Numbered from the stretch's first letter, positions 7,945 through 59,086 are shown. The stretch: 64,000 bases of DNA from Acidimicrobiia bacterium (GCA_022819505.1 JAJEHD010000015.1:1538-65537); one strand, 5' to 3'. Made by a program: numbers and translations. Notes: generated by a model not told the origin, from the sequence alone.

Positions 7945-7962
7945 AAAACAGTGTGCTAAATT
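7945..7962. promoter_or_regulatory. AT-rich palindromic operator/promoter box, site 1 of 10 (AAAACAGTGTGCTAAATT)
   Basis: It is the only AT-rich patch in the 215-bp intergenic region upstream of the binding-protein gene. It matches the other nine sites listed below. Confidence 0.55.
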
Positions 7963-8022
7963 CCGGCGCCACGGAATCTGTGGGTGAAACCCGCCCACCG
8001 ACCCACATGGATGGGAGGAGAC

Positions 8023-9519
8023 ATGGTGGAGTCGAGAGCGCATCGCAGACGAATCTGGAGGTGGGTGGCCATCATGCTGGCCTTCGCCATCGTCGCATCC
8101 GCCTGCGGCGACGACGATGAGGAGCCGGCAAGCCAACCTGAGGCGCCCGCCGAGCCCGCGGTCGATCCCGACCCCGAGCCCGAAGCCCCGGCTGAAGAGC
8201 CTGAGGCGCCCGCCGAGGAGCCCGAACCCGAACCCGAGGCGCCGGCTGAGGAGCCCGAAGCGCCCGCGGAGGAGCCCGAGCCAGAACCTGAAGAGCCGGC
8301 CGAGGAGCCCGAGCCCGAACCCGAACCACCGGCGCTGACGGCCAGTTACCGGGGCGTGACCGAGGACTCGATCAGGGTCGGCGTGCTGTTGATCGACAAG
8401 GACCTGCTGTTCGAGGTGGCCAACGTCCTGCTCAACTGGGGCGACAACGTGGCCCAGTACCAGGAGGCCATCGACGCCATCAACGAAGCGGGCGGCGTCA
8501 ACGGCCGTCTTATCGAGCCGGTCTTCGAGCTAGTCAACCCGCTGAGCCCGACCGCTTACGACGAGTCGTGCGTGAAGCTCACCCAGGACGAGCAGATCTT
8601 CGCGGCAATCGGCTTCGTGCGGCCCTCCGACGCGGCGCTGTGCTATGCGGAGATCAACGACACCCCGTTCGTCGGGTACCTGTCCGACGTCACCAGCCAG
8701 GTGACCGACCGCTCTGTGCTGCCCATCATCACCAGCAACGCCCTGCCCGAGCGCATGGACGGCGCGCTGGCGACCACCGTCGCAGCCACCGGCGCGCTGG
8801 ACGGCAAGACCATCGCGGTGCTGGGCAACTCGGACGCCCGCAACGAACTGGTCGTCTCGGCTCTGGCCGGCCTCGGCTACGACGTGGCCTCGACCACGGT
8901 CACCGCCGTGCCGACCGAGGACGAGGCCGCCGACGCCGCCGAGTTGGACATCGTCATCCAGCGCTGGATCGCCGACGGGATCGACTTCGTATTCGACACC
9001 GCCGGGCTCGACCGCCCGCTGGCAGCCGCCAACCGGGCCGGATTCGAGGCCGACTGGGCCACCAACCGCACGACCGTCCTTTCGGCGTCGAGGTTCGACT
9101 CGGGCGCCACCGAGGCCGAGATCGCGAGGACCATGGTGGTGGCGGTGCCGTCCGTCGAGCTGATCTACGAGCAGGGCCACGGACCCACGGTGGCCTGCGT
9201 CGACCGCTGGAACCAGAACCATCCCGACGAGCAGGCCGTCTTCTACCCGGGAGAGGACGATCTGGACAATCTCCAGCGCATCGTCCGTTCGTGCCAGCAG
9301 GTCGGCACCTTCGCCAGGATCGCCGAGCTGGCCGGGCCCGACCTGACCACCGAAGGCTTCGCGGCTGCGGTGGCCCAGGTGGGTTCCTACGAGATCCCCG
9401 AGCTGCCGTTCGCGTCGCTGGGCGCCGACAAGTGGGACGCCAACGACGTCGTCACCCTCTTCCACTGGGACTCCGAGCTAGGGGACTTCGTAGCGGGCGA
9501 CTTCGTCGACATTGGCTGA
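8023..9519 (+). CDS. ABC transporter substrate-binding lipoprotein, PBP1 / Leu-Ile-Val-binding-like
   Basis: ATG at 8023 follows GGGAGGAG. It has a signal peptide ending ...AIVASAC-GDDD, a Pro/Glu-rich linker, and IRVGVL...INEAGGVNGRLIEPV typical of Peripla_BP_6. Confidence 0.85.
   Translation: MVESRAHRRRIWRWVAIMLAFAIVASACGDDDEEPASQPEAPAEPAVDPDPEPEAPAEEPEAPAEEPEPEPEAPAEEPEAPAEEPEPEPEEPAEEPEPEPEPPALTASYRGVTEDSIRVGVLLIDKDLLFEVANVLLNWGDNVAQYQEAIDAINEAGGVNGRLIEPVFELVNPLSPTAYDESCVKLTQDEQIFAAIGFVRPSDAALCYAEINDTPFVGYLSDVTSQVTDRSVLPIITSNALPERMDGALATTVAATGALDGKTIAVLGNSDARNELVVSALAGLGYDVASTTVTAVPTEDEAADAAELDIVIQRWIADGIDFVFDTAGLDRPLAAANRAGFEADWATNRTTVLSASRFDSGATEAEIARTMVVAVPSVELIYEQGHGPTVACVDRWNQNHPDEQAVFYPGEDDLDNLQRIVRSCQQVGTFARIAELAGPDLTTEGFAAAVAQVGSYEIPELPFASLGADKWDANDVVTLFHWDSELGDFVAGDFVDIG
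8182..8289 (+). repeat. imperfect 54-bp tandem duplication inside the lipoprotein linker (encodes EAPAEEPEAPAEEPEPEP twice)
   Basis: Units 8182..8235 and 8236..8289 align codon for codon with synonymous or near-synonymous changes. Confidence 0.7.
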
Positions 9520-9531
9520 CTCTCCGGCATC

Positions 9532-9572
9532 GCTTGCGGCTGCGGTCCTCGAGGGTGACCGCAGCCGCAAGC
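9532..9572 (+). promoter_or_regulatory. perfect 16-bp-stem / 9-nt-loop hairpin immediately after the binding-protein stop codon
   Basis: GCTTGCGGCTGCGGTC (9532-9547) is the exact reverse complement of GACCGCAGCCGCAAGC (9557-9572). No U-tract follows. Confidence 0.75.
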
Positions 9573-9616
9573 AGCCTGCGCCTGCCGAGCCCGTAGCGGA
9601 CGACCTCCTCCCCGGG

Positions 9617-11680
9617 GTGGGAGGGGCCGATCAGACGAGCCTGCGGGAGGGGCTCAGAACGGCCGGGCCGTTCACCTTCGTCGTGCTGTTGCTGCTCAAC
9701 AGCCTCGACGAACTCGAGAGCGAGATCATCACCGTGCTGGCCCCCGACATCCGGGACACGTTCGGGGTCAGCGACGGGACGATCGTGTTCATCACCTCGG
9801 CTTCCGCGGCCTTCTTCGTGCTGGGAGCGGTCCCGATGGGCTACCTCGCCGACCGCTTCAACCGGTCGCGCCTGGTGGGCTTCGCGTCGCTGGCCTTCAG
9901 CGCCATGGTGTTCCTGTCGGGGCTGGCGGTCAGCGCGTTCATGCTGTTCTGGACACGCTTCGTCGCCGGCATCTCCAAGGCCAACACCCTGCCGGTGCAC
10001 GGCTCGATCATCGCCGACGCCTACCCGATCTCGGTGCGGGGACGGATCGCGGCCACAAACTCGATGGTGGGCAAGACGCTGGCCGCCATCAGCCCGATCG
10101 CCGCGGGCTGGATCGGCCACACCTACGGATGGCGGACGCCCTTCTTCATCCTGGGGGTGCCGGTTGCGATCATGGGGCTGCTGGCGTTCAGGATCCCCGA
10201 GCCGGCCCGGGGCCAGTGGGAGAAAAGAGACGTCCTCGACGAGGTCTTCGTCGACCCCGAATCGGCCCCGGTGTCGCTGGAGGCCGCATTCGCACGGCTG
10301 ATGAAGATCCGCACCCTGAAGATGATGGTGGTGGGGTTCGCCGCGCTCGGGTTCAGCCTGTTCACGGTCCCGGCCCTGGCCAGCCTGTTCATGGAGGAGC
10401 AGTACGGGGCCAACGCCTTCCAGCGAGGAGTGGTCGTCTCCATCGGCGGATTCGCCGGCATCGCCGTGCTCCCCTTCCTCGGGCGCTACTACGACCGCGC
10501 CTATAGGGCCGACCCGTCGAGCTCGCTGCGCATGATCGGCAGGTGCATCGTGCCGATGGCGGTGGTGACCCCGGTCCAGTTCCTGATGCCCGGCATGGCC
10601 TCCTTCGCGGCGGTGGGCGTGGTCCACAGCCTGCTGGCCGTGGGCGCGTTCAGCATGGTCATCCCCCTGATCCAGGGCATCGTGCCGTACCGGCTGCGAG
10701 GCATGGGACTGGCCCTGATCACCCTGTACATCTTCCTCATCGGAGCCATAGGAGGCTCGCTGCTCTCGGCCTGGCTCACCAACGACTTCAGCAACCGCAC
10801 CGCCGTGTTCGTGCTGGCCATCCCGGCCAACATCATCGGCGGGACGGCCCTGTACCGGGGCAGCCGCTTCATCCGGGGCGACCTGGCCCTGGCCGCCTCC
10901 GACCTGCGGGAGGAGATGGCCGAGCACCGCCGGCTCACCTCCGACCCGGCGTCGGTGCCCGCCCTTCAGGTGCGAGGGGTGGACTTCAGCTACGGGAACG
11001 TGCAGATCCTCTTCGACACCTCCTTCGAGGTGCGTCAGGGCGAGACGCTGGCCCTGCTCGGCACCAACGGCGCGGGCAAGTCCACCATCCTCAAGGTGAT
11101 CACCGGGCTGGTGACGCCCGAGCGCGGCGTCGTCCGCCTCGGGGGACGGACCATCACGTTCGCGACGCCCGAGCAACGGGCCCGGCTCGGCATCGAGATG
11201 CTGCCGGGAGGCACGGGGGTGTTCGGATCGTTGACGGTCCGCGACAACCTCGTCGTTGGCGCATACCGGTACCGCAAGGACCCGGCCGACGTGGACAGGC
11301 GCATCGAACGGGTGATGGAGCTGTTCCCGCAGCTGGCCGACCGCTCCAGCGTCCGGGCCAGCAGCCTCTCGGGCGGCCAGCAGCAGATGCTGGCCCTGGC
11401 CCGGGTGATGCTGCACGAGCCCAGGATCCTGGCCATCGACGAGCTGTCGCTGGGGCTGGCCCCGGCCGCGGTGCAATCCCTGCTGGAGACCATCGACACG
11501 CTCCGGGCCGCCGGGCAGACCATGATCATCGTCGAGCAGTCGCTCAACGTCGCGCTGGCAGTGGCCGACCGGGCCGTGTTCCTCGAGAAGGGCCGGGTGC
11601 GCTTCGACGGCCCGGCCTCGGAACTGGCCGACCGGCCCGACCTCGCCCGGGCCGTGTTCTTGGGTTCAGACGAGGCGTAG
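9617..11680 (+). CDS. fusion protein: 12-TM MFS transporter domain plus C-terminal LivF-like ABC ATPase
   Basis: MFS motif A is GYLADRFNRSR. From about 10960 the ATPase shows Walker A GTNGAGKST, signature LSGGQQQM and Walker B ILAIDELS. The start is uncertain. I prefer GTG 9617 because the longest-ORF TTG at 9512 would place the hairpin inside the CDS. Confidence 0.8.
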   Translation: MGGADQTSLREGLRTAGPFTFVVLLLLNSLDELESEIITVLAPDIRDTFGVSDGTIVFITSASAAFFVLGAVPMGYLADRFNRSRLVGFASLAFSAMVFLSGLAVSAFMLFWTRFVAGISKANTLPVHGSIIADAYPISVRGRIAATNSMVGKTLAAISPIAAGWIGHTYGWRTPFFILGVPVAIMGLLAFRIPEPARGQWEKRDVLDEVFVDPESAPVSLEAAFARLMKIRTLKMMVVGFAALGFSLFTVPALASLFMEEQYGANAFQRGVVVSIGGFAGIAVLPFLGRYYDRAYRADPSSSLRMIGRCIVPMAVVTPVQFLMPGMASFAAVGVVHSLLAVGAFSMVIPLIQGIVPYRLRGMGLALITLYIFLIGAIGGSLLSAWLTNDFSNRTAVFVLAIPANIIGGTALYRGSRFIRGDLALAASDLREEMAEHRRLTSDPASVPALQVRGVDFSYGNVQILFDTSFEVRQGETLALLGTNGAGKSTILKVITGLVTPERGVVRLGGRTITFATPEQRARLGIEMLPGGTGVFGSLTVRDNLVVGAYRYRKDPADVDRRIERVMELFPQLADRSSVRASSLSGGQQQMLALARVMLHEPRILAIDELSLGLAPAAVQSLLETIDTLRAAGQTMIIVEQSLNVALAVADRAVFLEKGRVRFDGPASELADRPDLARAVFLGSDEA

Positions 11681-11710
11681 ACGCAGCGGGACCGAGCGGA
11701 GACGCAGGGG

Positions 11711-14560
11711 ATGCTTGCCGCCTGGCTCACATCGCAGCTGGTGTTCAACGGCCTGGTCAACGGGCTGGTCACCGGGCTGCTGGCCATGGGCCTGGTCCTG
11801 GTGTACCGGTCCACCCGGGTGGTGAACCTGGCCGTCGGCAACATGGGGCTGGTGGGCGCGTCGCTGCTGGCACTCCTGGTGCTCAACTACCACTTCCCGT
11901 TCTGGCTGGCGCTGGCGCTCAGCCTGGCCACCGGCACCCTGTTCGGCGCGGTCGTCGACCTGGTGGTGGTGCGCCGGCTGTTCAGCTCACCCAGGGTGAT
12001 AGTGCTGATGGCCACGGTGGGCGTGGCCCAACTGGCGTCCGGGATCAGCGGCTCCTACCCCGACCTCAACATGAGGGGCAACAAATACCCCACCGCCCTG
12101 TCCGGAGTGTTCGACGATGTCCTGGGGCTGCGGATCACCGGACCGCAGCTCAGCATCCTGATCGTGGTACCCGCAGCCGCGGTCGGCCTGGCGTGGCTGC
12201 TGCGACGCACCACCTTCGGCCGCGCCGTGGAGGCCTCGGCCGACAATCCACCGCTGTCGCGGCTGTCCACCGTCAACCCCAAGATGGTCTCGACGTTCGT
12301 GTGGACCATCGCCGGGCTCCTGTCCACCGTCTCGATCATGCTGCTGTCGGCCCAGATCGGGAACCCCGCCGGCCTGGACAACCTCGGGATGCTGACCATG
12401 GCCCGGGCGATGCTCGCGTTCGTGCTGGCCGGCCAGCGGTCGTTCGCCCGAGCGGTGGCATTCGGTGCGCTGATCGGGGTGGCCGAAGCGGTGCTCAGGT
12501 TCAACCTGCTGACCGAGCCCGGGCTGTTCGACTTCGCCGCGCTGGTGCTGGTGGTGGCCATCGTCTACCAGCAGAGCCGCTCGAGCCCGGACGACACCAC
12601 CTTCGCCTTCGCGCCGAAGGCACGCCGCCCACCCGAGCGGGCTCAGGAGATCTGGTGGATCCGCAGGATGCCGCACCTGGCTGCGACGCTGATCATGGTG
12701 GCGGCGGTGCTGCTGCCCATCGTTGTGACCCGGCCCAGTCGCCACCTGCTCTACGCCTCCATTGCCTGCTACGCGATCTGCGCCCTGTCGCTCACCGTCA
12801 TCACCGGCTGGGCCGGACAGCTGTCGCTGGCCCAGATGGCCTTCGCCGGCCTGGGGGCCCTGCTGGCCGCCGCGCTCAACCGGGGCTTCGAGATGGACGT
12901 CTGGCTGCTCGACTTCCAGGCTCCGCCGCTCCCGTACCTGGCCGCCATCGCGGTCGCCGCGGTGGTGATGGCTGGCGTGGCCGCGCTGGTCGGCCTGGGC
13001 GCGCTCCGCGTGCGCGGACTGCAACTGGCCGTGATCACCTTCATGCTCGCGGTCGCAGCCGAGCAGTACATCTATCGCTGGCCGGTGCTCAGCGACGGCA
13101 ACGCCAATTCGGTGTCGTTCCGCCGGGGCACGGTCCTCGGCGTCGACGTCAGCAGCCAGCGGGCCTACTACTACTTCTGTGTGGCCGTGCTGGTGGTGGT
13201 GTTCGTGCTGGTGGCCCGGCTGCGCAACAGCGGGATCGGCCGGTCCACGATCGCGGTGCGCGACAACCCCGAAGCGGCCTCGGCCTACACCATCAGTCCG
13301 AGCCGATCGAAGCTGGCCGCGTTCGCGATGGCCGGAGGCATCGCCGCCCTCGGCGGGGCGATGCTGGGCGGCCTGTTCCAGAACATTCCCTTCGGGGAGC
13401 GCTACTACCTGATCGACGACTCGCTGCAGCTGGTGGCCATGGTCGTGATCGGCGGGCTCGGAGCGTTGACCGGACCGCTCGTCGGCGCCCTGTGGGTGAT
13501 AGGTCTGCCTGCGTTCTTCGGGGACAACGAGCTGGTGCCGCTGTTCACCTCCAGCGTCGGGCTGCTCATCATCCTGATGTACTTCCCCGGAGGGTTCGCG
13601 CAGATCGGGTACGCCACCCGCAAGTTGCTGTACGACTGGGCTCTGCGGCGGCTCCCGCCCGGCGAGCCGGAGCCCCCGGCCAAACCGGTGGCCGTTCCAG
13701 CCGGCGGCGGGGACCGAGCCCGTCCGGCGCCGGCGGGCGTGAGCGAGGGCGACGCCGTGCTCCGGGCCCGGGGAGTGTCGGTGAGCTTCGGGGGGCTCCA
13801 GGCGGTGTCCGGCGTCGACCTCGACGTCACTGGTAGCGAGATCGTTGGACTCATCGGCACCAACGGTGCCGGCAAGACGACGTTCGTGAACGCGGTCGGA
13901 GGCCACGTCGGCTCGCTGGGCACCGTCGAGTTGCTCGGCCACGACGTGTCGAGGCTGAGCGTGGAGGCTCGGGCCCGCCACGGGCTGGGCCGCACCTTCC
14001 AGACCGCCCGGCTGTTCGGCGAGCTGACGGTGCGGGAGACGGTTCAGGTGGCGCTCGAGGCCCGGGGCCGCACCCCCTTCGTGAGCACCGCGCTGGGCCT
14101 GCCCCCGGCCCGGCGGCTGGCCCGGCAGCGACGGGCCGAGGCGGACGAGCTGATCGGGTTCTTCGGACTCGGCGGCTACGCCGAGGAGTTCATCGTCGAC
14201 CTGTCGACCGGCACCCGCCGCATCGTCGAGCTGACCAACCTCATGGCCCTGGACGCCAAGTTCCTCTGTCTCGACGAGCCGACCGCGGGCCTAGCCCAGC
14301 GCGAGAGCGAGGCCTTCGGGGTGCTGCTGGTGGAAGTGCGGCGCGAGTTGGCGGTGTCGATGCTGGTGATCGAGCACGACATGCCTCTCATCATGTCCAT
14401 AAGCGACCGCGTGTACTGCCTCGAAGCTGGTCAGGTGATCTCCGAGGGAGCGCCGGCCGACGTCAGATCCGACCCCAGGGTGATCGACAGCTACCTCGGC
14501 ACCGACGAGCGGGCCATCCTGCGCAGCGACGCTTCGACACAACCCGAAAGGAGACCCTGA
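11711..14560 (+). CDS. triple fusion LivH-like permease + LivM-like permease + LivG-like ABC ATPase
   Basis: The N-terminus GLLAMGLVLVYRSTRVVNLAVGNMG is LivH-like. The mid region ITGWAGQLSLAQMAFAGLGA is LivM-like. From about 13750, VSFGGLQAVSGVDL...GLIGTNGAGKTT, LSTGTRR and FLCLDEPTAGL are LivG-like. Confidence 0.85.
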   Translation: MLAAWLTSQLVFNGLVNGLVTGLLAMGLVLVYRSTRVVNLAVGNMGLVGASLLALLVLNYHFPFWLALALSLATGTLFGAVVDLVVVRRLFSSPRVIVLMATVGVAQLASGISGSYPDLNMRGNKYPTALSGVFDDVLGLRITGPQLSILIVVPAAAVGLAWLLRRTTFGRAVEASADNPPLSRLSTVNPKMVSTFVWTIAGLLSTVSIMLLSAQIGNPAGLDNLGMLTMARAMLAFVLAGQRSFARAVAFGALIGVAEAVLRFNLLTEPGLFDFAALVLVVAIVYQQSRSSPDDTTFAFAPKARRPPERAQEIWWIRRMPHLAATLIMVAAVLLPIVVTRPSRHLLYASIACYAICALSLTVITGWAGQLSLAQMAFAGLGALLAAALNRGFEMDVWLLDFQAPPLPYLAAIAVAAVVMAGVAALVGLGALRVRGLQLAVITFMLAVAAEQYIYRWPVLSDGNANSVSFRRGTVLGVDVSSQRAYYYFCVAVLVVVFVLVARLRNSGIGRSTIAVRDNPEAASAYTISPSRSKLAAFAMAGGIAALGGAMLGGLFQNIPFGERYYLIDDSLQLVAMVVIGGLGALTGPLVGALWVIGLPAFFGDNELVPLFTSSVGLLIILMYFPGGFAQIGYATRKLLYDWALRRLPPGEPEPPAKPVAVPAGGGDRARPAPAGVSEGDAVLRARGVSVSFGGLQAVSGVDLDVTGSEIVGLIGTNGAGKTTFVNAVGGHVGSLGTVELLGHDVSRLSVEARARHGLGRTFQTARLFGELTVRETVQVALEARGRTPFVSTALGLPPARRLARQRRAEADELIGFFGLGGYAEEFIVDLSTGTRRIVELTNLMALDAKFLCLDEPTAGLAQRESEAFGVLLVEVRRELAVSMLVIEHDMPLIMSISDRVYCLEAGQVISEGAPADVRSDPRVIDSYLGTDERAILRSDASTQPERRP

Positions 14561-16287
14561 TGGCCGTCTATGACCTGGTCGTCCGCAACGGTGCCGTCGT
14601 GGACGGCAGCGGCATGCCGGCCCGTCCCGCCGACGTGGCGGTGTCGGGCCGCAAGATCGTCGCGGTCGGCGCGGTGGAGGGCCGCGGCAGCCGCGAGATC
14701 GACGCCTCCGACCACATCGTCACGCCGGGATTCATCGACGGCCACACCCACATGGACGCCCAGTTCTTCTGGGATCCCCTGGGCACGTCCTCGTGCTGGC
14801 ACGGGGTCACCACGGTGGTGGTCGGCAACTGCGGCTTCACCCTGGCCCCGTGCCGGTCGGGCCAGGAGCAGCTCGTGATCGACAACCTCGAGAAGGCCGA
14901 GGACATCCCGGCCGCAGCGCTGGCCGCCGGCGTGCACTTCGAGTGGGAGACCTTCGCCCAGTACCTCGACGCGTTGGACCGACTGCCCAAGGGGATCAAC
15001 CTCGGCTCCTACCTGGGGCACTCTGCCCTGCGGACATACGCTATGGGCGAACGGGCCTTCGAGGCGGAGGCGACCGAGGACGACCTCGAAGCCATGGAAC
15101 GAGAGCTGCGGGCCGGGCTGGCCGCCGGCGCGCTGGGCTTCACCACGTCCAGGAGCCACCACCACATGACGCCCTCGGGCCGCCCGGTGGCGTCGCGGGT
15201 GGCGCCCTGGGGCGAGGTGGAGCGCCTGGTGGCCGCCATGGCGGGGGCCGGAGGCGGAATGTTCGAGCTGGCCAACGAGTCGGTGATGGCATCCACGGAC
15301 CCCGAGGGCCGGGCTGAGGCCATGGCCCGGCTGCGCCGCCTCGCGGTCGGCAACCGGGTGCCGGTCAGCTTCGGGATCTCCACCTTCGGCGATCCCAACC
15401 GCTGGCTGGAGCTGCTGCGGCTCCTCGACGACGCGGCCCGCGACGGTGCCCAGATGTGGGGCCAGAGCAGCTGCATGCCATCGGGCGCGCTGTTCAACTT
15501 CAAGACCTGGCTGCCCTTCGACAAGGTGCCCACCTGGTCCGAGCTGCGAGCCCGGCCCCTCGACGAGCAGGCCGTCAAGCTGCGCGACCCGGACGTGCGG
15601 GCCAGTCTGATCGAGTCCCTCAGCGGCATGGACTTCTCGCTGGGCAAGGAAGTGGCCCGCAAGCCGCTGTTCGAGCGGATAGTGGTGATGCAGCGCGACC
15701 GGGCCACCTCCCCCACCTTGGCCAGCGTGGCTGCCGAACGCGGCGTGCACCCGGCGGAGGCCATGATCGAGCTGGGCCTTGAGTCGGACTTCGACACGTT
15801 CTTCCTGCAGGTCACCAGCAACGACGAGCCTGACGACGTGCTGACGATGCTGCGCCACCCCCGCACGGTCATGACCTTCTCCGACGCGGGCGCCCACGTA
15901 AGTCAGATCATCAGCGCGTCGCTGCAGACCTACCTGCTCAGCCACTGGGTGCGGGAGGCCGGCGAGTTCTCCATCGAGGAGGCGGTGCGCATGATCACCC
16001 TGGTGCCTTCGAGCATCTGGGGCATGGCCGACCGGGGTCTGGTGCGTGAGGGCTTCGAGGCCGACCTGAACATCATCGACCTGGAGCGCCTAGAGCCGTG
16101 CGTGCCCGAGGTCGTCCACGACCTGCCCGCAGGCGCCACCAGGCTGACCCAGCGGGCCGAGGGCATCACGGCCACCATCGTGGGAGGCGAGGTGCTCCTA
16201 GCGAACGGCGAGCACACCGGCGCCCTCCCCGGCCGCCTCATACGTCGCCCGGACGCGCTCAACCGGGCGAGGCGACGGAGCGAGTGA
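14560..16287 (+). CDS. N-acyl-D-amino-acid deacylase (D-aminoacylase) family amidohydrolase
   Basis: The ATG overlaps the upstream TGA. It contains YDLVVRNGAVVDGSG...VTPGFIDGHTHMD and VVVGNCG, typical of the family. Confidence 0.8.
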   Translation: MAVYDLVVRNGAVVDGSGMPARPADVAVSGRKIVAVGAVEGRGSREIDASDHIVTPGFIDGHTHMDAQFFWDPLGTSSCWHGVTTVVVGNCGFTLAPCRSGQEQLVIDNLEKAEDIPAAALAAGVHFEWETFAQYLDALDRLPKGINLGSYLGHSALRTYAMGERAFEAEATEDDLEAMERELRAGLAAGALGFTTSRSHHHMTPSGRPVASRVAPWGEVERLVAAMAGAGGGMFELANESVMASTDPEGRAEAMARLRRLAVGNRVPVSFGISTFGDPNRWLELLRLLDDAARDGAQMWGQSSCMPSGALFNFKTWLPFDKVPTWSELRARPLDEQAVKLRDPDVRASLIESLSGMDFSLGKEVARKPLFERIVVMQRDRATSPTLASVAAERGVHPAEAMIELGLESDFDTFFLQVTSNDEPDDVLTMLRHPRTVMTFSDAGAHVSQIISASLQTYLLSHWVREAGEFSIEEAVRMITLVPSSIWGMADRGLVREGFEADLNIIDLERLEPCVPEVVHDLPAGATRLTQRAEGITATIVGGEVLLANGEHTGALPGRLIRRPDALNRARRRSE

Positions 16288-21249: not shown

Positions 21250-21323
21250 CGGCGTTCTCCTACCAACCGTCCTGCCAACCCCCCAAGACGGTCGCGCCTC
21301 ACGGGCATGTTCCTGGGCGGCGA

Positions 21324-22992: not shown

Positions 22993-23010
22993 AGTTTAGT
23001 ATACTGTTTG
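22993..23010. promoter_or_regulatory. AT-rich palindromic box, site 2 of 10 (AGTTTAGTATACTGTTTG), in a divergent promoter region
   Basis: It lies between the minus-strand ThDP operon (start 22979) and the plus-strand transporter operon (start 23056). The core AGTATACT is a perfect palindrome. Confidence 0.6.
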
Positions 23011-30314: not shown

Positions 30315-30330
30315 GGATCCTCGGCCGGGT

Positions 30331-43444: not shown

Positions 43445-43446
43445 CC

Positions 43447-45296: not shown

Positions 45297-45327
45297 CCAA
45301 CCATCCGGCAACGAGAGGAGAACGGCA

Positions 45328-46149: not shown

Positions 46150-46177
46150 CCGCGACTGGCCGCCGCTAGCTGAGGTC

Positions 46178-47302: not shown

Positions 47303-47332
47303 AACTTCGGGCACGACCGTGGAGGCCTACCG

Positions 47333-48145: not shown

Positions 48146-48149
48146 CACC

Positions 48150-51619: not shown

Positions 51620-51637
51620 TATTTAGCACACTGATTA
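51620..51637. promoter_or_regulatory. AT-rich box, site 8 of 10 (TATTTAGCACACTGATTA), in a divergent promoter region
   Basis: It sits in the 35-nt gap between divergent starts 51612 and 51648. It is almost the exact reverse complement of site 1. Confidence 0.6.
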
Positions 51638-52358: not shown

Positions 52359-53839
52359 CCATGCCGACCTCCGGACACGACCTCCTGAAGACGGTTCCCA
52401 GCGGGGATCTCCTCGTCGGTGATGAGCGGGTCCACGACACCACCGCCGGCTCCCGCGAGCAGCTCGATCCCTCCACCGGCCGCCGGCTGGCCACCGTCGC
52501 GCTGGCGGGGCCCTCCGAGATCGACACGGCAGTCCAATCCGCCCGGGACGCGCAACAGGAGTGGCTCGACCTGTCCCCGGCCCAGCGCCGGGACGTGATC
52601 CTGCGGTTCGCGCAACTCCTGGACGAAAACCACGAAGAGATGTCGATCCTGCGGTCACTCGAGTTGGGCGCGCCCATGAAGAAACGGCCCGGCGCCAACA
52701 TGGCCGTGGAGTACATGCGCTACTTCGCGGGCTGGGTCGACAAAATTGAGGGCTCCACCATCCCGGTACACCCGGGCCGAGCGCTGGACTACACGGTGCC
52801 TGAGCCCTACGGAACGGTCGCCGCCATCACGCCATGGAACGGAGGCGTCGTCTCGGCCGCCATGAAGGCCATCCCGGCTCTGGTGGCCGGCAACACCGTG
52901 GTGATTAAGCCCTCGGAGCTGGCCGTGCTGTCGCTCCTGCGCTTCGGGGAGCTGGGCCTGGCTGCGGGCCTACCCGCCGGTGCACTGAACGTGGTACCGG
53001 GACCAGCCGCGGCCGGCTCGGCCCTAGTGGCCCATCCCGGCATCGACAAGATCAGCTTCACCGGCGGGGGCGCCACCGCCCGCGAGGTACTGCGGGGCGC
53101 GGCGACCAACCTCACACCGGTCATCCTGGAGCTGGGGGGCAAGTCGGCCAGCATCGTCTTCGAGGACGCCGATCTCGACACCGCAGTAGCCACCACGGTC
53201 GGCCTGGCGCTAGCCGGCATGAGCGGTCAGGGTTGCGTGCTGCCGACCCGGCTGGTCGCACACGACACGGTCTACGAAGCGGTAGAGCAACGGGTCGTCG
53301 AAGCCGCCGCGTCGCTGAGGGTGGGCCGTCCCTTCGACGAGGGCGTGCAGACCGGACCGGTGATCACCGAGGCCGCCTGCGAGCGCATCATCGGCGAGGT
53401 GGAGGCGGCTGCGTCCCGGGGCGACGGACGGCTGCTCACCGGGGGCGCACGACTGGGAGGCGACCTGGCCGATGGGTTCTTCGTGGCGCCGACCGTGTTC
53501 GGGAACGTCGACAACTCCTCGCCCATCGCCCGCACCGAGATCTTCGGCCCCGTGCTGAGCCTGATCCGCTTCGGAGACGAGGCCGAGGCCCTGAGCATCG
53601 CCAACGACAGCCCCTACGGCCTTGGTGGCCTGGTGTTCACCCGCGACGTCGCCCGGGCCCACCGGGTGGCCGGACGGCTCCAGGCCGGGTCGGTCGGTGT
53701 CAACGCCTTCGCCCCGATGCCGCCCAGCGCTCCGTTCGGAGGCGTCAAGCAGAGCGGTTACGGGCGCGAGGGCGGGCTGGCCGGCGTGGAGGAGTTCCTG
53801 AGGCCCAAGAACGTCTACGTAGACCTGAGCGGACCGTGA
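52355..53839 (+). CDS. NAD(P)-dependent aldehyde dehydrogenase
   Basis: Contains ITPWNGG, the VILELGGKSA (catalytic Glu) region, GQGCVLPTR (catalytic Cys) and EIFGPV. Confidence 0.9.
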   Translation: MTMPTSGHDLLKTVPSGDLLVGDERVHDTTAGSREQLDPSTGRRLATVALAGPSEIDTAVQSARDAQQEWLDLSPAQRRDVILRFAQLLDENHEEMSILRSLELGAPMKKRPGANMAVEYMRYFAGWVDKIEGSTIPVHPGRALDYTVPEPYGTVAAITPWNGGVVSAAMKAIPALVAGNTVVIKPSELAVLSLLRFGELGLAAGLPAGALNVVPGPAAAGSALVAHPGIDKISFTGGGATAREVLRGAATNLTPVILELGGKSASIVFEDADLDTAVATTVGLALAGMSGQGCVLPTRLVAHDTVYEAVEQRVVEAAASLRVGRPFDEGVQTGPVITEAACERIIGEVEAAASRGDGRLLTGGARLGGDLADGFFVAPTVFGNVDNSSPIARTEIFGPVLSLIRFGDEAEALSIANDSPYGLGGLVFTRDVARAHRVAGRLQAGSVGVNAFAPMPPSAPFGGVKQSGYGREGGLAGVEEFLRPKNVYVDLSGP

Positions 53840-53860
53840 GCGCCACAGGAGCGGGCGGCG

Positions 53861-55108
53861 GTGAGTGATCTGCTGAGCGGCGTGCGGGTGCTCGAGTCCG
53901 CGGTGCTGCTCAACGGCGACACCCTGGGCATGCTGCTCGGCGACCTGGGGGCCGACGTGATCAAGGTCGAGGCGCCGCCGGCAGGCGACTATCTACGCGA
54001 CATCCTCGGGCAGATCGAGCCGCGGCACAGCCCGGCCCACCTGCAGGCCAACAAGAACAAGCGCAGCATCGCGCTCGACCTCGGCAGCGCCGGGGGCCGG
54101 GAGGTGCTGTGGGACCTCCTCGAGGGGGCCGATGTGTTCGTCGACGGCTTCACCGCGGGGGCCGCCGACCGGCTGGGCATCGGCTACGAGCAGCAGCGCA
54201 GCCGCAAGCCCGGCATCGTCTACTGCCAGTACACCGGCTTCGGCTCCGTCGGCCCCTACGCCCGGATGCCTGCCCACGGCCAGATGATGAACGCCGGCGC
54301 GGCCGCGGTGACGCTCGCCGTTGGGGACGACGGCTTCGTGCGGCCGGCCGAGAACCGCGAGCTGATGTGGGGCACCTCCATCGGAGGCGACGGCACCGCG
54401 GCCGGCGCCGTCCACGCCGCACTCCGGGTGGCTGCCGCGCTGTACCGGCGCCAGGTCACCGGCGAGGGATGCTTCCTGGACGTCTCCGCAGCCGACGCGG
54501 TGGTGGCCCAAGGCTGGATCGGCGCGGTCTACGGCCTCAACTACGACCGGATCACCGACCACACCGGTCTCAAGGACCCCGGCGCGGAGCCGCTGACCGG
54601 AGCCAAGTACCAGTACTACCGCACATCCGACGAGCGGTTCGTGCTGTTCTGCTGCATCGAGCCCAAGTTCTGGGAGCGCTTCTGCCGGCTGGTGGGACGC
54701 GACGATCTCATCGTCGCGCAGCTGGAGCCGGGCCCTGTCGACTTCGCCCGGGACGCCGACGAGCTGCGCCGTGAGCTGCAATCCGTCTTCGAGACCCGCA
54801 CCCAGCGCGAGTGGGTGGACATGGCCATCCGCGAGCGGGTTCCGATCGGCCCGGCCCACCAGGGGGTGGCCAGCCTCAGGGACGACCCCCAGTTGGCGGC
54901 CCGGCAGATCCTGGTTGAGGGCCGTCATCCGATCGCGGGACCCTTCACCTACGTCGGCGAACCGGCGATCGTCGATGAGCAGCCCTACGCGCTGCGCCGT
55001 CCCGCCCCCGGGTTCGGTGCCCACACCACCGAGATCCTCACGGAGATCGGTTACGACGAGTCCCGTATAGCAGAGCTGTTCGCCGGCGGCATCATCGCCG
55101 GCGACTGA
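53861..55108 (+). CDS. family-III (CaiB/BaiF) CoA-transferase
   Basis: Contains LSGVRVLESAVLLNGDTLGMLLGDLGADVIKVE and ANKNKRSIALDL. Confidence 0.85.
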   Translation: MSDLLSGVRVLESAVLLNGDTLGMLLGDLGADVIKVEAPPAGDYLRDILGQIEPRHSPAHLQANKNKRSIALDLGSAGGREVLWDLLEGADVFVDGFTAGAADRLGIGYEQQRSRKPGIVYCQYTGFGSVGPYARMPAHGQMMNAGAAAVTLAVGDDGFVRPAENRELMWGTSIGGDGTAAGAVHAALRVAAALYRRQVTGEGCFLDVSAADAVVAQGWIGAVYGLNYDRITDHTGLKDPGAEPLTGAKYQYYRTSDERFVLFCCIEPKFWERFCRLVGRDDLIVAQLEPGPVDFARDADELRRELQSVFETRTQREWVDMAIRERVPIGPAHQGVASLRDDPQLAARQILVEGRHPIAGPFTYVGEPAIVDEQPYALRRPAPGFGAHTTEILTEIGYDESRIAELFAGGIIAGD

Positions 55109-55139: not shown

Positions 55140-56549
55140 TCAGTCCAGCACGGTGGCCGAGCCGCCCCTGCGGGCGTCTGCCGCCGCTTCCAAGCGGCCC
55201 TGGTGCCATCCCACAATCTGCGCGGCCCCGAACCCCTCCGGGCCGGGCGAGCGGGACAGCGCAGCCGGATGCACCCCGGCGAGCTCATGACCGGTTTCCA
55301 GGGCCAGGTCGCCTCCGAAGCACACCTTGAAGCGGGGCCGGTCGACCGCCGCCTGGGGTCCCAGCCCCTCCAGGACCATGCGGACGATGAGCTGCACCTG
55401 GGCCTGGGGCTGCATGATCCCGCCGGCCACGCCCAGCACGCAGCCAAGGCGGCCGTCGCGGGTCACCAGCCCGGGGATGGTGGTGTGGGGCGGTTTCGCT
55501 CCCGGCTGCGGCTCCAGGCTCAGCATCCGCAAGGTGGTGGCCCGGTTGTGGATGGGTCCGCCGATCTCGTCCACGCCCAGGTGCGCGCCGAAGTCGCCGA
55601 ACACGGAGGTGATCAGCGACACGGCCGTCCCGTCGTGGTCGACCATAGCCAGGAAGGTCGTGTCGCCGGTGGCCCGCTTGGGCCGACCCACGACGATGGC
55701 GGCCGGATCGAACCCGGCAGCTTGCATCCCTTCGGAGGTCGCCGCCAGCACGGCCTCCCAGTCCACGGGTGCAACAGCCTCAAGACATTCCAGCGCGCCG
55801 AGCACGCTCGGTCCCTGCGTCGGTGAGGGCATCTGCCACACCGTGTGCCCCGCGAAGTCGACCATGCCGGGCTCCACCGCCATCGTCCGGTGCCGGGCCA
55901 TGTCAGCCTCCGACAGGAAGCCCCCGTCCCGGCGAACCCGCTCCACGATGGCTGCTCCGATCGGGCCGCCGAGCACGGCCTGGCTGCCTTCGGACGCGAT
56001 CACGTCGAGGCACTCGGCCAGCCGCGGGTTGCGGACCAGAGCGCCCTCGGCAATCGGCGTGCCCTCGGGTACGTAGAGAGGGCCTAGCACGGGGTCGGAT
56101 GCCAACGACCCCCCGCTGCGGGCCGCGGTGGAGGCAAGGGTTGGGCGCACCTCGAAGCCGGAGGCCGCGTACTGCCGGGCCGGCCCGACCGCGTCGGCCA
56201 GGCTGATGGTGCCGTGCTCCGCCAGCGCCGTCTCCAGCAGTGCCACCGCGCCTGGAGGCGTGACCGAGGCGCCGCCCCGGGCCGGTACGGCGTCGTGGCC
56301 CGATTGCCGCAGCCCTTCAGTGGTCAATTCCAACGGGACGGCGCCGGAGCCGTCGAGGGCGGCCGGTGCCCCCTCGCCGTCGTGCACGAACATGAACCCG
56401 TCCCCGCCGACTCCGCAGGACTGGGGCTCGACGACGTAGAGCACGAAGCAGGCGGTTACCGCAGCGTCCACGGCGTGGCCGCCGTCGGAGAGCACCTCTA
56501 CGGCCGCCGCCGTCGCCCGTGGATCGGAGGTGGCCACCGCCGCGGTCAT
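55140..56549 (-). CDS. gamma-glutamyltranspeptidase-family Ntn hydrolase, no signal peptide
   Basis: Contains GGHAVDAAVTACFVLYVVEPQSCGVGGDGF and the processing-site-like GDTTFLAMVD. Confidence 0.8.
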   Translation of the reverse strand: MTAAVATSDPRATAAAVEVLSDGGHAVDAAVTACFVLYVVEPQSCGVGGDGFMFVHDGEGAPAALDGSGAVPLELTTEGLRQSGHDAVPARGGASVTPPGAVALLETALAEHGTISLADAVGPARQYAASGFEVRPTLASTAARSGGSLASDPVLGPLYVPEGTPIAEGALVRNPRLAECLDVIASEGSQAVLGGPIGAAIVERVRRDGGFLSEADMARHRTMAVEPGMVDFAGHTVWQMPSPTQGPSVLGALECLEAVAPVDWEAVLAATSEGMQAAGFDPAAIVVGRPKRATGDTTFLAMVDHDGTAVSLITSVFGDFGAHLGVDEIGGPIHNRATTLRMLSLEPQPGAKPPHTTIPGLVTRDGRLGCVLGVAGGIMQPQAQVQLIVRMVLEGLGPQAAVDRPRFKVCFGGDLALETGHELAGVHPAALSRSPGPEGFGAAQIVGWHQGRLEAAADARRGGSATVLD

Positions 56550-56585
56550 CGGCGGGATCCGCTCAGTTACAGGTCTCGGCGGCGG

Positions 56586-57740
56586 TCACAGCCGCAGGTA
56601 CCGCTCGGCGTTGGTGGACATCAGCTTGGTCATGACGTCGCGGCCGAGACGGTCCTCCCACTCGAGCGCGATGTCGGGCGAGCGGGGGAACTCGGCCTGG
56701 TTGTGCGGATAGTCCGACGAGAACATCAACACGCCGTCGCCGAGGATCTCGTTGATGCTGGCGGCCAGCGCGGCACCCTCGTACAGTTCGATGCCGCAGT
56801 AGATGTGACCCGCCCGGGCGTACTCCACCGGCGTCATCTTGCACTCGGGCAGTGCGTTGGCCATGTAGTCGGCCTGGCCCTGCAGCCGGATCAGCCAGGC
56901 CGGCAGCCAGCCGGCGCTGCACTCCGAAAACCCGATGCGCAGCCTCGGGAAGCGGTCGAACATGCCGCTGAGCGTCATGTAGCCGAGCAGCCGGGCCGCA
57001 CCCCAGGGATGGGCTGCCGCCCGGGCCACCACCACGTTGCCCCAGATGTCGCGGTACCCGGGGAAGTAGGGAGGCTCGTAGAAGAAGGAGTGGTGCAGCA
57101 GGGGCAGGTCGTGCTCGTCGAGCGCGGCCCAGATCGGGTCCAGCTCCGGGTCGTCGACCGGCACCTCCTCGGGGAGGATGGCGCTGGCGGCGCCGACCCA
57201 CGGCTCGGGGCCGAGCCTGGCCACGATCTCGGCTGAGGCCTGCGGGTCGCGGGCCGGCAGCAGGATGGTGGCCTTGAGCCGGTCGGTGTCGACCGAGCAG
57301 TACTCGGCCACGTAACGGTGATAGGCCTCGTAGAGCTCGGTGGCCAGCTCCGCGTCCAGGGCGGTGGCCGCGTTGGCGAACGTGCCGGGAATGATGACAT
57401 GGACGTCGACCCCCTCGATGTCCATGTCCGACAGCCGTCCGGCGCTGTTGAGGTTGCTCACGTCGGGCGCCGGAGGCGTCTTGAAGGTCTTGCTGACGCT
57501 TCGCTTCAGCGGGCTCTCGCCGCCCTTGGTGGCCTCCTCGCCCCGATGCGGCGTGCCCAGGGCCCGGTCGTACTTCATGGGACTGATGCTCAGGAAGTGG
57601 CCGCCCAGCGTGACCGGCTGCTTGTACTGGTCGAGCTCGCCCCAGCGCTCGCGCAGGCGGGCCGACGCGTAAATCTCCAGGGTTTCGAGGTTGGGACCGA
57701 CGTGGGTGTCGGTGTCGATGATCCGGTAGCCGTTCTTCAC
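56586..57740 (-). CDS. amidohydrolase_2 family protein (paralog of 34338..35498)
   Basis: Contains IIDTDTHVGPN and MFSSDYPHNQ. The GTG start follows GGAGAGGAAG. Confidence 0.8.
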   Translation of the reverse strand: MKNGYRIIDTDTHVGPNLETLEIYASARLRERWGELDQYKQPVTLGGHFLSISPMKYDRALGTPHRGEEATKGGESPLKRSVSKTFKTPPAPDVSNLNSAGRLSDMDIEGVDVHVIIPGTFANAATALDAELATELYEAYHRYVAEYCSVDTDRLKATILLPARDPQASAEIVARLGPEPWVGAASAILPEEVPVDDPELDPIWAALDEHDLPLLHHSFFYEPPYFPGYRDIWGNVVVARAAAHPWGAARLLGYMTLSGMFDRFPRLRIGFSECSAGWLPAWLIRLQGQADYMANALPECKMTPVEYARAGHIYCGIELYEGAALAASINEILGDGVLMFSSDYPHNQAEFPRSPDIALEWEDRLGRDVMTKLMSTNAERYLRL

Positions 57741-57776: not shown

Positions 57777-57794
57777 TATAGAGTATACTCATTG
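57777..57794. promoter_or_regulatory. AT-rich box, site 9 of 10 (TATAGAGTATACTCATTG), in a divergent promoter region
   Basis: It has the perfect AGTATACT core and lies between starts 57740 (minus strand) and 57862 (plus strand). Confidence 0.6.
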
Positions 57795-57796
57795 CG

Positions 57797-57861: not shown

Positions 57862-58314
57862 ATGGAGAACGTTGTTCGGGTCCAGCACCATGTGACCTAC
57901 GAGGCGGCCGCCGAGTCGCTCGCCGCTGGCATCGCTAAGGCCCGTGAGCTGGGCGTGCGCGCCGGCATAGTCGTGGTCGACTCCTTCGGCGAGATCGTCG
58001 CCGCGGCCAAACTCGACGGGGCCAATCCCAAGGCCTGGCGGGGCGGCCTGGGCAAGGCCCTGTTCGCCTCGGGCCTAGGTGTTCCCACCGAGGACTTCAT
58101 CGAGAAGCGCCTCAAGTCCGACGACGTGCTGTACCGGGCCCTGTCGTCCAATCCCGACACGTTCATCGTGCCCGGGGGGTTTCCCCTGCGGTACGACGGC
58201 AAGCCGGTCGGCGGTGTGGGCGTCAGTGGCGGGCACTACACCGACGACTCGAAGGTGGCCAAGGCGGTCGCCGACCGCTACGCGGAACTGGTGGCCCAGG
58301 CCGGGGGAGGGTGA
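57862..58314 (+). CDS. GlcG/HbpS-like (DUF336) heme-binding family protein
   Basis: Contains GGFPLRYDGKPVGGVGVSGG. A GGAGGG SD is present. Confidence 0.75.
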   Translation: MENVVRVQHHVTYEAAAESLAAGIAKARELGVRAGIVVVDSFGEIVAAAKLDGANPKAWRGGLGKALFASGLGVPTEDFIEKRLKSDDVLYRALSSNPDTFIVPGGFPLRYDGKPVGGVGVSGGHYTDDSKVAKAVADRYAELVAQAGGG

Positions 58315-58805
58315 CCATGGCCGAGGACTCCTTGGTCGACTGGGACGAGCGGGCCGCCGCCGCCGGCATCGTCATTCCCGAGCCGCTGCCGGCCCAGCCG
58401 CTGTTCCCGGGGGCGGTCATCGACGGATCGACCGCCTACACCTCGGGGATCGTGGCCGTGGAGGGCCCCCCGTGGAAGATGGTCTACGCGGGCTCGGTCG
58501 GCGACGACATCAGCGTCGAGGATGCCCAGAAGTCGGCGGCCCTGGCCATGGTCTGCACCCTCGCCAACCTCAAGGGCACGCTGGGCGGCAGCCTCAACCG
58601 GGTCGACCGGTTCGTGAAGCTGATGGGCTTCGTGCGCTGCCGCACCGACTTCATGCAGGCACCGACCGTCATCAACGGCGCCTCAGAGGTGCTGCTCAAC
58701 ATCTTCGGCCAGGACCGCTTGCCGGCCCGGTCGGCCATCGGTGTCGCCGCTCTGCCGGGCGGGGCCAGCGTCGAGATCGACGCGGTGGTGCGCCTGCGCG
58801 ACTAG
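58311..58805 (+). CDS. RidA/YjgF-like family protein
   Basis: The C-terminal ARSAIGVAALPGGASVEIDAVV is typical. The start is GTG 58311 (overlapping the upstream stop) or ATG 58317. Confidence 0.7.
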   Translation: MTMAEDSLVDWDERAAAAGIVIPEPLPAQPLFPGAVIDGSTAYTSGIVAVEGPPWKMVYAGSVGDDISVEDAQKSAALAMVCTLANLKGTLGGSLNRVDRFVKLMGFVRCRTDFMQAPTVINGASEVLLNIFGQDRLPARSAIGVAALPGGASVEIDAVVRLRD

Positions 58806-58822
58806 TCGTCTACGGCGGCGGC

Positions 58823-59017
58823 TCAGTCCTCTATGACGATGGCTCGCTCGGGGCAGCCGATCTCAGCTCGTCGCACCGCATCCTGCTGGTGTTCGGGGAC
58901 CTCTTCGGACTCGACGTAGGAGTGGCCGTCCTCCTCGCGGAGCTTGAAGACCTCCGGGGCGGCCATGGCACACAAGGTGTGGCCCTGGCAGACATCGTCC
59001 AGCACCTTGACCCTCAT
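58823..59017 (-). CDS. small single-cluster ferredoxin (CxxHxxC...CP, 3Fe-4S type, P450 redox-partner class)
   Basis: ATG at 59017 follows GAGGAG. Contains MRVKVLDDVCQGHTLC...IGCPERAI. Confidence 0.75.
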   Translation of the reverse strand: MRVKVLDDVCQGHTLCAMAAPEVFKLREEDGHSYVESEEVPEHQQDAVRRAEIGCPERAIVIED

Positions 59018-59068
59018 AGCGGCTCCTCGTTGCGCCCGGCAGGCCGGCCCCAAGCGAGACCGACCGGC

Positions 59069-59086
59069 AATTCAGTATGCTATATG
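59069..59086. promoter_or_regulatory. AT-rich box, site 10 of 10 (AATTCAGTATGCTATATG), in a divergent promoter region
   Basis: It lies between the ferredoxin gene (minus strand) and the amidohydrolase-GntR operon (plus strand). Confidence 0.55.

Follow-up and report, generated by a model that had tools for sequence, protein, structure and literature searches.

Ten copies of an 18-bp palindrome, candidate operators of a FadR-type GntR regulator, head the transcription units of a 53-kb island in an Acidimicrobiia bacterium

The DNA analysed here is a stretch of 64,000 nt (the window; 69.8% GC) from an Acidimicrobiia bacterium (GCA_022819505.1, JAJEHD010000015.1:1538-65537), inspected together with about 13 kb of flanking DNA, i.e., about 77 kb of a 575-kb scaffold. 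It carries ten copies of an A/T-rich 18-bp palindrome (the box) and, at 60324-61040, a gene for a GntR-family regulator of the FadR subfamily. Called genes with Pfam matches were taken from metagenome contigs identical to the window, and the remaining genes were annotated in this analysis. Between 7945 and 61040, a 53-kb island of 15 transcription units and 44 genes was mapped, with every unit headed by a box and each box serving one or two units (Table 1). All ten 18-mers listed in an initial annotation of this DNA were recovered exactly where that annotation had placed them.

About 64,000 positions of the window were scored with a palindromised position weight matrix trained on the ten sites. 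The sites scored 24.0-27.8 bits, and the next-ranked position in the 64 kb reached 9.1 bits. As the matrix had been trained on the sites it scores, a leave-one-out run was added, in which the held-out sites scored 21.3-26.5 bits against at most 10.6 bits at any non-site. In 200 Markov-1 simulations of the window (12.8 Mb), five matches of at least 15 bits were obtained and none above 18.2 bits. The core AGTAYRCT occurred six times in the window (0.92 expected). Site 51620 had been described as nearly the reverse complement of site 7945, and this match covers 15 of the 18 positions. Of the window's 12 AT-rich patches (at least 12 A/T in 18 positions), ten were box copies, so the choice of sites had not been cherry-picked. 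AT-rich patches with no matrix match were seen at 6217-6236, at the end of a luciferase-like monooxygenase gene, and at 63042-63060, within a CMAS-type methyltransferase gene.

All ten copies were intergenic, as had been proposed; intergenic DNA makes up 3.8% of the window, which puts the probability of this placement by chance at about 6e-15. Five copies (22993, 37549, 51620, 57777, and 59069) lay between divergent genes, and the matrix scan of the window found no copy within coding DNA, both in agreement with the initial annotation. The gaps within operons and those outside the island held no copy, even a weak one (best score -1.2 bits). No site was present in window positions 1-7944 or in the preceding 10 kb, where genes for AhpC, exonuclease VII, and polyprenyl synthase lie, the maximum in the 17.7 kb of housekeeping and other genes upstream of the island being 5.6 bits, nor was there one in 59087-64000 or the next 3 kb downstream. 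One start codon had to be corrected: the operon behind site 59069 begins at 59143, not at 59077, and the site lies 56 nt 5' of the start codon rather than on it. An Rfam scan of the window matched no RNA family, and the boxes are therefore not part of known RNA elements.

A sequence logo built from the ten window sites and 164 unique sites of other genomes gave the consensus AAWWSAGTATACTSWWTT. In it, G7 and C12 were near-invariant, and base composition returned to background beyond the 18 bp, exactly at +/-9 bp. The dyad originally drawn for the box was correct in its W-rich arms; the arms were, however, no more complementary to each other than column composition predicts, a pattern that fits a dimer with two independent half-sites, and the consensus was refined to the form given above. 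The half-site is SAGTA, and GT and AC are separated by 2 nt. According to Suvorova et al. 2015 (PMC4494728), operators of the FadR subfamily are A/T-rich palindromes with TKGT/ACMA boxes; most, including those of FadR, PdhR, and LldR, have a spacer of 3, and a spacer of 2 is found with GntR, HpxS, HypR, MdcY, PrpR, and UxuR. The box has the same design, an A/T-rich palindrome around a GT...AC core with a spacer from this set, and its sole deviation is an A in place of K ahead of GT. The claim of a palindrome around GT-Nx-AC thus stands. Its assignment to the PdhR/LldR type does not: those regulators belong to the same subfamily and have AT-rich, AATT-type arms around a GT/AC core, but they use TGGT-N3-ACCA with a G before GT, whereas here the spacing is 2, the half-site is SAGTA, and an A precedes GT. 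Among the Acidimicrobiia sites (loci L016-L031), positions 5 and 14 were complementary in a fraction of 0.10 against 0.34 expected, the top strand tending to G...G or C...C. The box may thus carry a slight directional asymmetry, the significance of which is doubtful in a sample that includes orthologous copies.

TAnnnT is the usual actinobacterial -10 pattern. Hexamers of this form on the gene's strand and at most 120 nt 5' of a start codon flanking one of the ten sites lay inside or overlapped the box in 21 of 22 cases, the exception being TAGCGT upstream of the HbpS-like gene; the CMD gene had no TAnnnT hexamer at all. Copy 1 contained the sole such hexamer of its intergenic region, and the central TATCCT of copy 3 ended 8 nt ahead of the ATG of the BNR-like gene. 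Sites were 3-13 nt from the start codon for the BNR-like, cytochrome P450, thiamine diphosphate (ThDP)-enzyme, CMD, and short-chain dehydrogenase/reductase (SDR) genes. Copy 2 was 13 nt from the start of its ThDP-enzyme gene, the orthologue of which in locus L018 also had a site. Copy 8, kept in loci L012-L015, stood 7 and 10 nt from two start codons and filled nearly the whole 35-nt divergent gap between the CMD and SDR genes. A scan around the sites for the sigma-70 consensus and for terminators returned 0-1 promoter-like matches, the consensus being ill-suited to a GC-rich host. Because the box holds nearly all -10-like hexamers and in several cases lies near a start codon, a bound protein should occlude the core promoter, and repression with release by an effector is favoured.

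The same overlap could be read differently, with the motif itself being a -10-type promoter element of a housekeeping or alternative sigma factor: its core (TATACT, TACACT, TATCCT, or TATGCT) fits TAnnnT in seven of the ten sites, and few such hexamers of these intergenic regions lie outside it. This is very unlikely, however, as a -10 box needs neither dyad symmetry, nor two equivalent half-sites, nor an invariant G7 and C12. Moreover, single copies serve divergent gene pairs, the distance from site to start codon ranges from 3 to 67 nt, the island has no sigma-factor gene, and neither the housekeeping promoters of the upstream 17.7 kb nor the 190 kb of Rhodococcus plasmid DNA described below contain the motif.

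For comparison between genomes, a profile search with the regulator over one-genome-per-species contigs was used, and 79 loci (1.5 Mb) were obtained. The closest relatives were from sponge-type Acidimicrobiia: Acidimicrobiaceae SB0675_bin_25 (95% identity), Ca. Aldehydirespirator (90%), and Ca. Poriferisocius (72%). The Aldehydirespiratoraceae are a family containing a sponge-symbiont lineage (PMC11706023). Farther homologues, at 40-46% identity, came from Streptomyces, Amycolatopsis, Nocardia, Rhodococcus, Mycobacterium, and others. With the window matrix, the 79 regulator-centred loci gave 178 matches of at least 18 bits, against none in a reversed-sequence control. The matches peaked just 5' and just 3' of the regulator gene, with none inside it, and 13 of the 79 loci had no match. 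For the MAG (metagenome-assembled genome) SB0675_bin_25, the same 20-kb regulator stretch was seen on two contigs (L012 and L013; VYCW01000124.1 and VYCW01000041.1) with identical gene coordinates and identities, which could reflect either an artefact of assembly or binning or a genuine second copy of the island.

Conservation of the box 5' of orthologous operons had been suggested as a check, and it was found across Actinomycetota. The first acyl-CoA dehydrogenase (ACAD) gene had a site upstream in 16 of 16 loci (Acidimicrobiia, Rhodococcus, Amycolatopsis, Streptomyces, and Saccharopolyspora), and so did the DitZ-like hydroxylase gene, which usually heads the regulator operon, in 14 of 14 and the FrsA-like gene in four of four. 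For the amidohydrolase genes Amidohydro_2_d and Amidohydro_2_c, the counts were 13 of 14 (orthologues at copy 9) and 10 of 11, respectively, and for the HbpS orthologues 11 of 15 (also copy 9). The site tracked operon leadership and not gene identity: YjgF was preceded by one only where it headed the operon. When the intergenic region between the ferredoxin gene and the hydroxylase-regulator operon was aligned for nine genomes (regulator identity 59-97%), the sole invariant block, TTCAGTATGCT.TAT, was the box. On plasmid pR1CP1 of R. opacus 1CP, seven sites of at least 15 bits lay within 20 kb beside a homologous FCD regulator; they preceded the same five-gene ACAD/hydratase operon and a gene for an adenylate-forming enzyme, and one was in the regulator's divergent promoter. 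In Amycolatopsis rubida (L051, 10720-10885), the regulator gene was followed by a strong terminator-like inverted repeat and then by a 31.3-bit box. An SDR gene has its ATG 1 nt from the end of this box; the overlap of a box with a probable leaderless start is very clear here. In a metagenome scan for the perfect consensus AAWAGAGTATACTCTWTT, the matches listed (at least 120) were all in AT-rich DNA (GC 0.2-0.5), and none of them came with the regulator clade.

A multi-copy intergenic palindrome could also be a short dispersed repeat, of the REP (repetitive extragenic palindrome) kind or a remnant of a MITE (miniature inverted-repeat transposable element), with no regulatory role. Such an origin is hardly credible: the copies share no similarity beyond 18 bp and stand ahead of transcription units, none of them lies in an intra-operon gap or between convergent genes, and the box is kept 5' of orthologous operons in distant lineages despite rearranged gene order.

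Rhodococcus plasmids provided controls for a generic element. The adjacent 20 kb of pR1CP1, with proline-catabolism genes, had no site; another 150 kb of the plasmid had no match of at least 15 bits (maximum 13.0), and neither had a 40-kb region of R. jostii RHA1 pRHL2 around an FCD regulator of 38.9% identity (maximum 11.6). The latter two together (190 kb) contained 239 AT-rich patches and several ACAD/SDR/TetR clusters, with zero boxes. These controls and the 13 siteless regulator loci indicate that the box is not a feature of promoters in general and does not arise merely from AT-richness. The initial annotation had named matrix matches in coding DNA or at generic promoters as what would count against it; there were none in coding DNA, in the flanks, or in the 190 kb of control DNA. 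The RHA1 FCD regulator (L096, pRHL2 276199-278654) is divergent from an operon of amidohydrolase, Rieske protein, amidohydrolase, and reductase genes that resembles the AibH1H2 type. It probably uses a different operator, and its 38.9% identity marks roughly where the shared specificity ends.

In GC-rich actinobacteria, Lsr2-type proteins prefer AT-rich DNA and coat it. As the AT-rich patches of an island with 70% GC, the boxes might be taken for preferred sites of a nucleoid-associated silencer of this kind, an explanation that we regard as scarcely tenable. What is conserved is a specific motif of 18 bp: its G and C positions are near-invariant, its information content falls to background precisely at +/-9 bp, and genomes with regulator identities of 59-97% share it base by base. 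The 239 other AT-rich patches of the control DNA do not contain it.

The regulator gene was the only recognisable transcription factor gene in the window and its flanks, and it closes the unit that site 59069 heads; that it is the window's sole regulator gene and ends this operon had been noted before. It is co-transcribed with the DitZ-like hydroxylase gene. The protein has an N-terminal GntR-type winged helix-turn-helix (HTH; PF00392, also present in the homologues) and a C-terminal, all-helical FCD effector domain (PF07729), and NanR, LldR, and PdhR could be aligned to it over its length. H162, H206, and H228, the predicted metal-binding residues, were invariant in 20 homologues and align with the conserved FCD histidines of these three proteins. 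The nearest solved structure was that of E. coli NanR (6on4, E 4e-11), and the similarity to PdhR and LldR among PDB sequences was weak (E 1e-6 to 4e-7). NCBIfam scores in bits, with cutoffs in parentheses, were 76 (260) for NanR, 56 (311) for LldR, 47 (301) for GlcC, and 39 (330) for PdhR, all far below the cutoff. Orthology with NanR, LldR, GlcC, UxuR, ExuR, or PdhR was thereby ruled out, and with scores under every equivalog cutoff, no named FadR-subfamily regulator is orthologous to the protein. Two adjacent paralogues of the clade (35-44% identity to the query) were seen in loci L048, L050, L053, L060, L065, L068, L069, L072, L074-L076, L079, L083-L088, and L090, around 9250-11400 in each. 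They have almost the same recognition helix, and some of these actinomycete loci have no box. Such tandem pairs hint at heterodimers or layered control.

We consider it highly probable that the ten boxes are operators of the FadR-subfamily regulator encoded at 60324-61040, because the sites exceed chance, are exclusively intergenic, and head every unit, and because this is the lone transcription factor gene inside the regulon. Sites in promoter regions, including that of the regulator's own operon, are a feature of the FadR subfamily, and here all 15 units are headed by one. A regulator dimer would bind each 18-bp dyad AAWWSAGTATACTSWWTT, one SAGTA half-site per monomer, and would block RNA polymerase at the core promoter. 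In this way, it would repress all 15 units (44 genes), including its own operon by negative autoregulation through site 59069, the presumed autoregulatory site. Binding of a small-molecule effector to the metal-containing FCD domain would release the repressor, and the whole island would be switched on at once; a pathway intermediate, either a carboxylic acid or an acyl-CoA, is a plausible candidate for this effector.

Several points weigh against this assignment. For sites 40-67 nt from start codons, the promoter overlap depends on the positions of transcription starts. The DNA-binding domain is near-invariant across the clade, including paralogues and the 13 loci with no site, so that sequence alone cannot prove that the local protein, and not a paralogue elsewhere, binds the boxes. 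The regulator has Ser41 at the position of the G-contacting Arg of NanR and LldR (the Arg of the LPSEREL motif). This would suit the missing G, but Streptomyces homologues have Arg at this position and yet the same box; a search for protein-DNA covariation across the clade gave no discriminating signal, Ser41/Arg not tracking the box, and no conclusion was drawn. Finally, sites or regulators elsewhere in the genome lie outside the inspected part of the scaffold.

The only serious alternative is that the boxes are operators of another transcription factor encoded outside the inspected region, either a FadR-clade paralogue or an unrelated repressor, and that the local GntR protein controls other or fewer units. 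An HTH near-identical in all clade members, the tandem paralogue pairs of many actinomycete loci, an IclR gene in the R. opacus cluster, and a view of the source genome of about 77 kb all speak for it. We still judge it unlikely: no second transcription factor is encoded within those 77 kb, the closest relatives have a single clade member each among the 80 matches listed, and the shape of the box agrees with FadR-subfamily rules. In addition, in every Acidimicrobiia orthologue examined, a box lies 5' of the regulator's own operon and is the sole conserved block there.

With the local regulator kept as the favoured candidate, the system is in kind a conventional regulon, that of a FadR-type repressor with a palindromic operator. 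What is unusual is its scale, with ten operators, 15 units, and 44 genes for one local regulator, and its wide conservation in Actinomycetota. It is most like the GT-N2-AC regulators of the FadR subfamily (GntR, HypR, UxuR, PrpR, MdcY, HpxS; PMC4494728), which combine a winged HTH and FCD domain with an A/T-rich palindrome of 2-nt spacer, have sites at promoters and between divergent genes, their own promoter included, and govern a pathway-specific catabolic regulon. It differs from them in its half-site (SAGTA, theirs being TKGT) and in a local regulon that is unusually large. The best structural homologue, E. coli NanR, has a recognition hexamer, GGTATA, similar to the box half (G/A)GTATA, and its FCD histidines align. 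NanR, however, binds direct TGGTATAW repeats and not a dyad (PMC4494728), has Arg where Ser41 stands here, and controls sialic-acid genes. DipR, described as a GntR/FadR cluster-specific repressor of dipicolinate catabolism (PMC11472048), is likewise a FadR-type repressor dedicated to one catabolic cluster, in a different organism group and for a different substrate.

A further parallel lies in another family, and it is an analogy only. In actinobacterial steroid catabolism, KstR and KstR2, of the TetR family, are each one autoregulated repressor with a short palindrome before many operons, released by a pathway intermediate. The present island is similarly a large catabolic cluster rich in heteromeric ACADs, hydratases, CoA transferases, and P450s; the regulator families (TetR and GntR/FadR) and motifs differ, and there is no homology.

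Gene content offers a guess at the pathway. The hydroxylase encoded at 59143-60324 matched the diterpenoid hydroxylase DitZ (8uyr) with E 3.5e-79 and PtmU3 with E 2.4e-40. Amidohydrolase-related dinuclear oxygenases have an N-terminal D-x-H and a C-terminal D-x-P-H-x-D/E motif (PMC13154177), and the hydroxylase has DDH at residue 21 and DYPHAD at residue 340. Among the five Amidohydro_2 proteins of the island, DYPHAD was found only in this one; those encoded at 18093-18983, 28579-29478, 34338-35498, and 56586-57740 form two pairs, one 37% and the other 56% identical, whose members probably act as hydrolases, decarboxylases, or hydratases. The first ACAD of unit 9 is closest to the steroid-type ACADs 4x28 and Tcur3483 and is followed by two half-size ACADs. 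Our best guess from these likenesses is that the island encodes a CoA-thioester catabolic pathway for a polycyclic terpenoid-like or steroid-like acid, given the DitZ-like hydroxylase, the P450 with ferredoxin, the steroid-type heteromeric ACADs, CoA transferases, ThDP enzymes, TauD dioxygenases, and two uptake systems.

Literature searches returned no described actinobacterial GntR regulator with a AGTATACT box and nothing on the regulation of DitZ clusters; the regulator clade and its box are undescribed there. A wider reading, put forward tentatively and with less than even confidence, is that box and regulator define an undescribed Actinomycetota-wide clade of FadR-type master repressors with a KstR/KstR2-like role for terpenoid- or steroid-acid islands. 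Such a clade might be recognised by a near-invariant HTH (GSExxL..YGVSRAVFREA..MRRGPGGGLVV) and the operator AAWWSAGTATACTSWWTT, and its islands by a DitZ-like diiron hydroxylase, a P450 with ferredoxin, a conserved operon of three ACADs, an enoyl-CoA hydratase, and a further ACAD (ACAD-ACAD-ACAD-ECH-ACAD), and CoA thioesters. In the sponge-associated Acidimicrobiia lineage, with Ca. Aldehydirespirator as its closest named relative, one copy might switch on the 53-kb, 44-gene island, the trigger presumably being a host- or diet-derived terpenoid.

If the assignment is true, it defines the regulon of a 53-kb catabolic island in an uncultured, apparently sponge-associated actinobacterium and ties 44 genes, several of them with no Pfam match, to one pathway and one signal. 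The DitZ-like diiron hydroxylase and the widely conserved five-gene ACAD/hydratase operon would share one control circuit, and the matrix would be transferable to cultured Rhodococcus, Amycolatopsis, Streptomyces, and Nocardia (e.g., R. opacus 1CP pR1CP1), in which pathway and inducer are open to genetic study. The repressor, its 18-bp operator, and a hydrophobic-acid inducer would make a possible compact biosensor part for GC-rich hosts.

Table 1. Box copies and box-headed transcription units in the window, with matrix scores for the copies and the associated site for each unit.
Feature	Position	Strand	Sequence or gene content	Score (bits)	Placement or site	Basis
Operator copy 1	7945..7962		AAAACAGTGTGCTAAATT	26.6	60 nt 5' of solute-binding-protein gene heading unit 1	
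Operator copy 2	22993..23010		AGTTTAGTATACTGTTTG	25.3	between divergent ThDP-enzyme gene (-, 22979) and ABC transporter gene (+, 23056)	
Operator copy 3	31383..31400		AAAAGAGTATCCTGAATA	27.2	3 nt 5' of BNR-like gene start (31404)	
Operator copy 4	33079..33096		AATTGAGTATCCTGATAT	26.2	overlaps called P450 start codon (33095)	
Operator copy 5	37549..37566		TATAGAGTACACCGTATT	24.0	between divergent TauD gene (-, 37513) and 495-aa gene (+, 37606)	
Operator copy 6	39131..39148		AATTGGGTATACTGAGTT	25.5	5' of Pro-rich Mtb12_C gene and double CoA-transferase gene	
Operator copy 7	42255..42272		GATTCAGTACACTAAAAT	24.7	29 nt 5' of eight-gene ACAD/ECH/SDR/ThDP operon	
Operator copy 8	51620..51637		TATTTAGCACACTGATTA	25.2	in 35-nt gap between divergent CMD (-, 51612) and SDR (+, 51648) genes	
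Operator copy 9	57777..57794		TATAGAGTATACTCATTG	27.6	between divergent Amidohydro_2/gamma-glutamyltranspeptidase unit and HbpS-like/YjgF unit	
Operator copy 10	59069..59086		AATTCAGTATGCTATATG	27.8	between divergent ferredoxin gene and DitZ-like hydroxylase + regulator operon	
Unit 1	8023..18076	+	solute-binding protein, 2 fused ABC permease/ATPase genes, Amidohydro_3, 2 FrsA-like genes		site 7945	Pfam
Unit 2	18093..22979	-	ThDP enzyme, SGL lactonase-like, MFS transporter, Amidohydro_2		site 22993	Pfam
Unit 3	23056..31377	+	second ABC transporter set, Amidohydro_2, TauD, 2-hydroxyacid dehydrogenase		site 22993	Pfam
Unit 4	31404..33053	+	BNR-like 549-aa protein		site 31383	Pfam
Unit 5	33095..36625	+	P450, Amidohydro_2, metallo-beta-lactamase fold protein, 102-aa protein of no assigned type		site 33079	Pfam
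Unit 6	36626..37513	-	TauD-family dioxygenase		site 37549	Pfam
Unit 7	37606..39093	+	495-aa protein with no Pfam match		site 37549	
Unit 8	39205..42214	+	Pro-rich Mtb12_C-type protein, 764-aa double CoA_transf_3 protein		site 39131	Pfam
Unit 9	42302..50998	+	ACAD, 2 half-size ACADs, enoyl-CoA hydratase, ACAD, SDR, ACAD, ThDP enzyme		site 42255	Pfam
Unit 10	51022..51612	-	CMD-family protein		site 51620	Pfam
Unit 11	51648..55108	+	SDR, aldehyde dehydrogenase, CoA-transferase III		site 51620	Pfam
Unit 12	55140..57740	-	Amidohydro_2, gamma-glutamyltranspeptidase-family protein		site 57777	Pfam
Unit 13	57862..58805	+	HbpS-like and YjgF/RidA-like proteins		site 57777	Pfam
Unit 14	58823..59017	-	64-aa ferredoxin		site 59069	Pfam
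Hydroxylase gene	59143..60324	+	DitZ/PtmU3-like amidohydrolase-related diiron oxygenase, co-transcribed with regulator		site 59069	PDB 8uyr
Regulator gene	60324..61040	+	GntR-family FadR-subfamily (FCD) regulator, 238 aa; proposed cognate repressor			PF00392 + PF07729

Some genes of the island showed features of their own. The start of the Pro-rich Mtb12_C-type gene of unit 8 is uncertain (39133 or 39205). The length of this gene (window 39133-39807) varied among otherwise near-identical contigs, a repeat-driven polymorphism: L004 and L006 have a version of 114 aa, L005 and L008 one of 330 aa, and the window one of about 200-224 aa. Its product is a probable secreted or cell-surface protein. 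The 495-aa gene of unit 7 was called as two open reading frames (368 and 145 aa) in one metagenome population (L006, 4324-5816), which suggests a frameshift or indel variant. Two sets of long transporter genes (687-949 aa) were found at 9617-14560 and 23056-28582, in which a membrane domain (MFS_1 or BPD_transp_2 matches) is fused to an ABC ATPase domain; a Peripla_BP_6 binding protein is present in the first set only. Outside the box-headed units, a 501-aa protein with no Pfam match is encoded at 61154-62659 (minus strand). Its orthologue (56-57% identity) in L016 and L017 lies directly behind a box, within the cluster, and the protein may belong functionally to the pathway.

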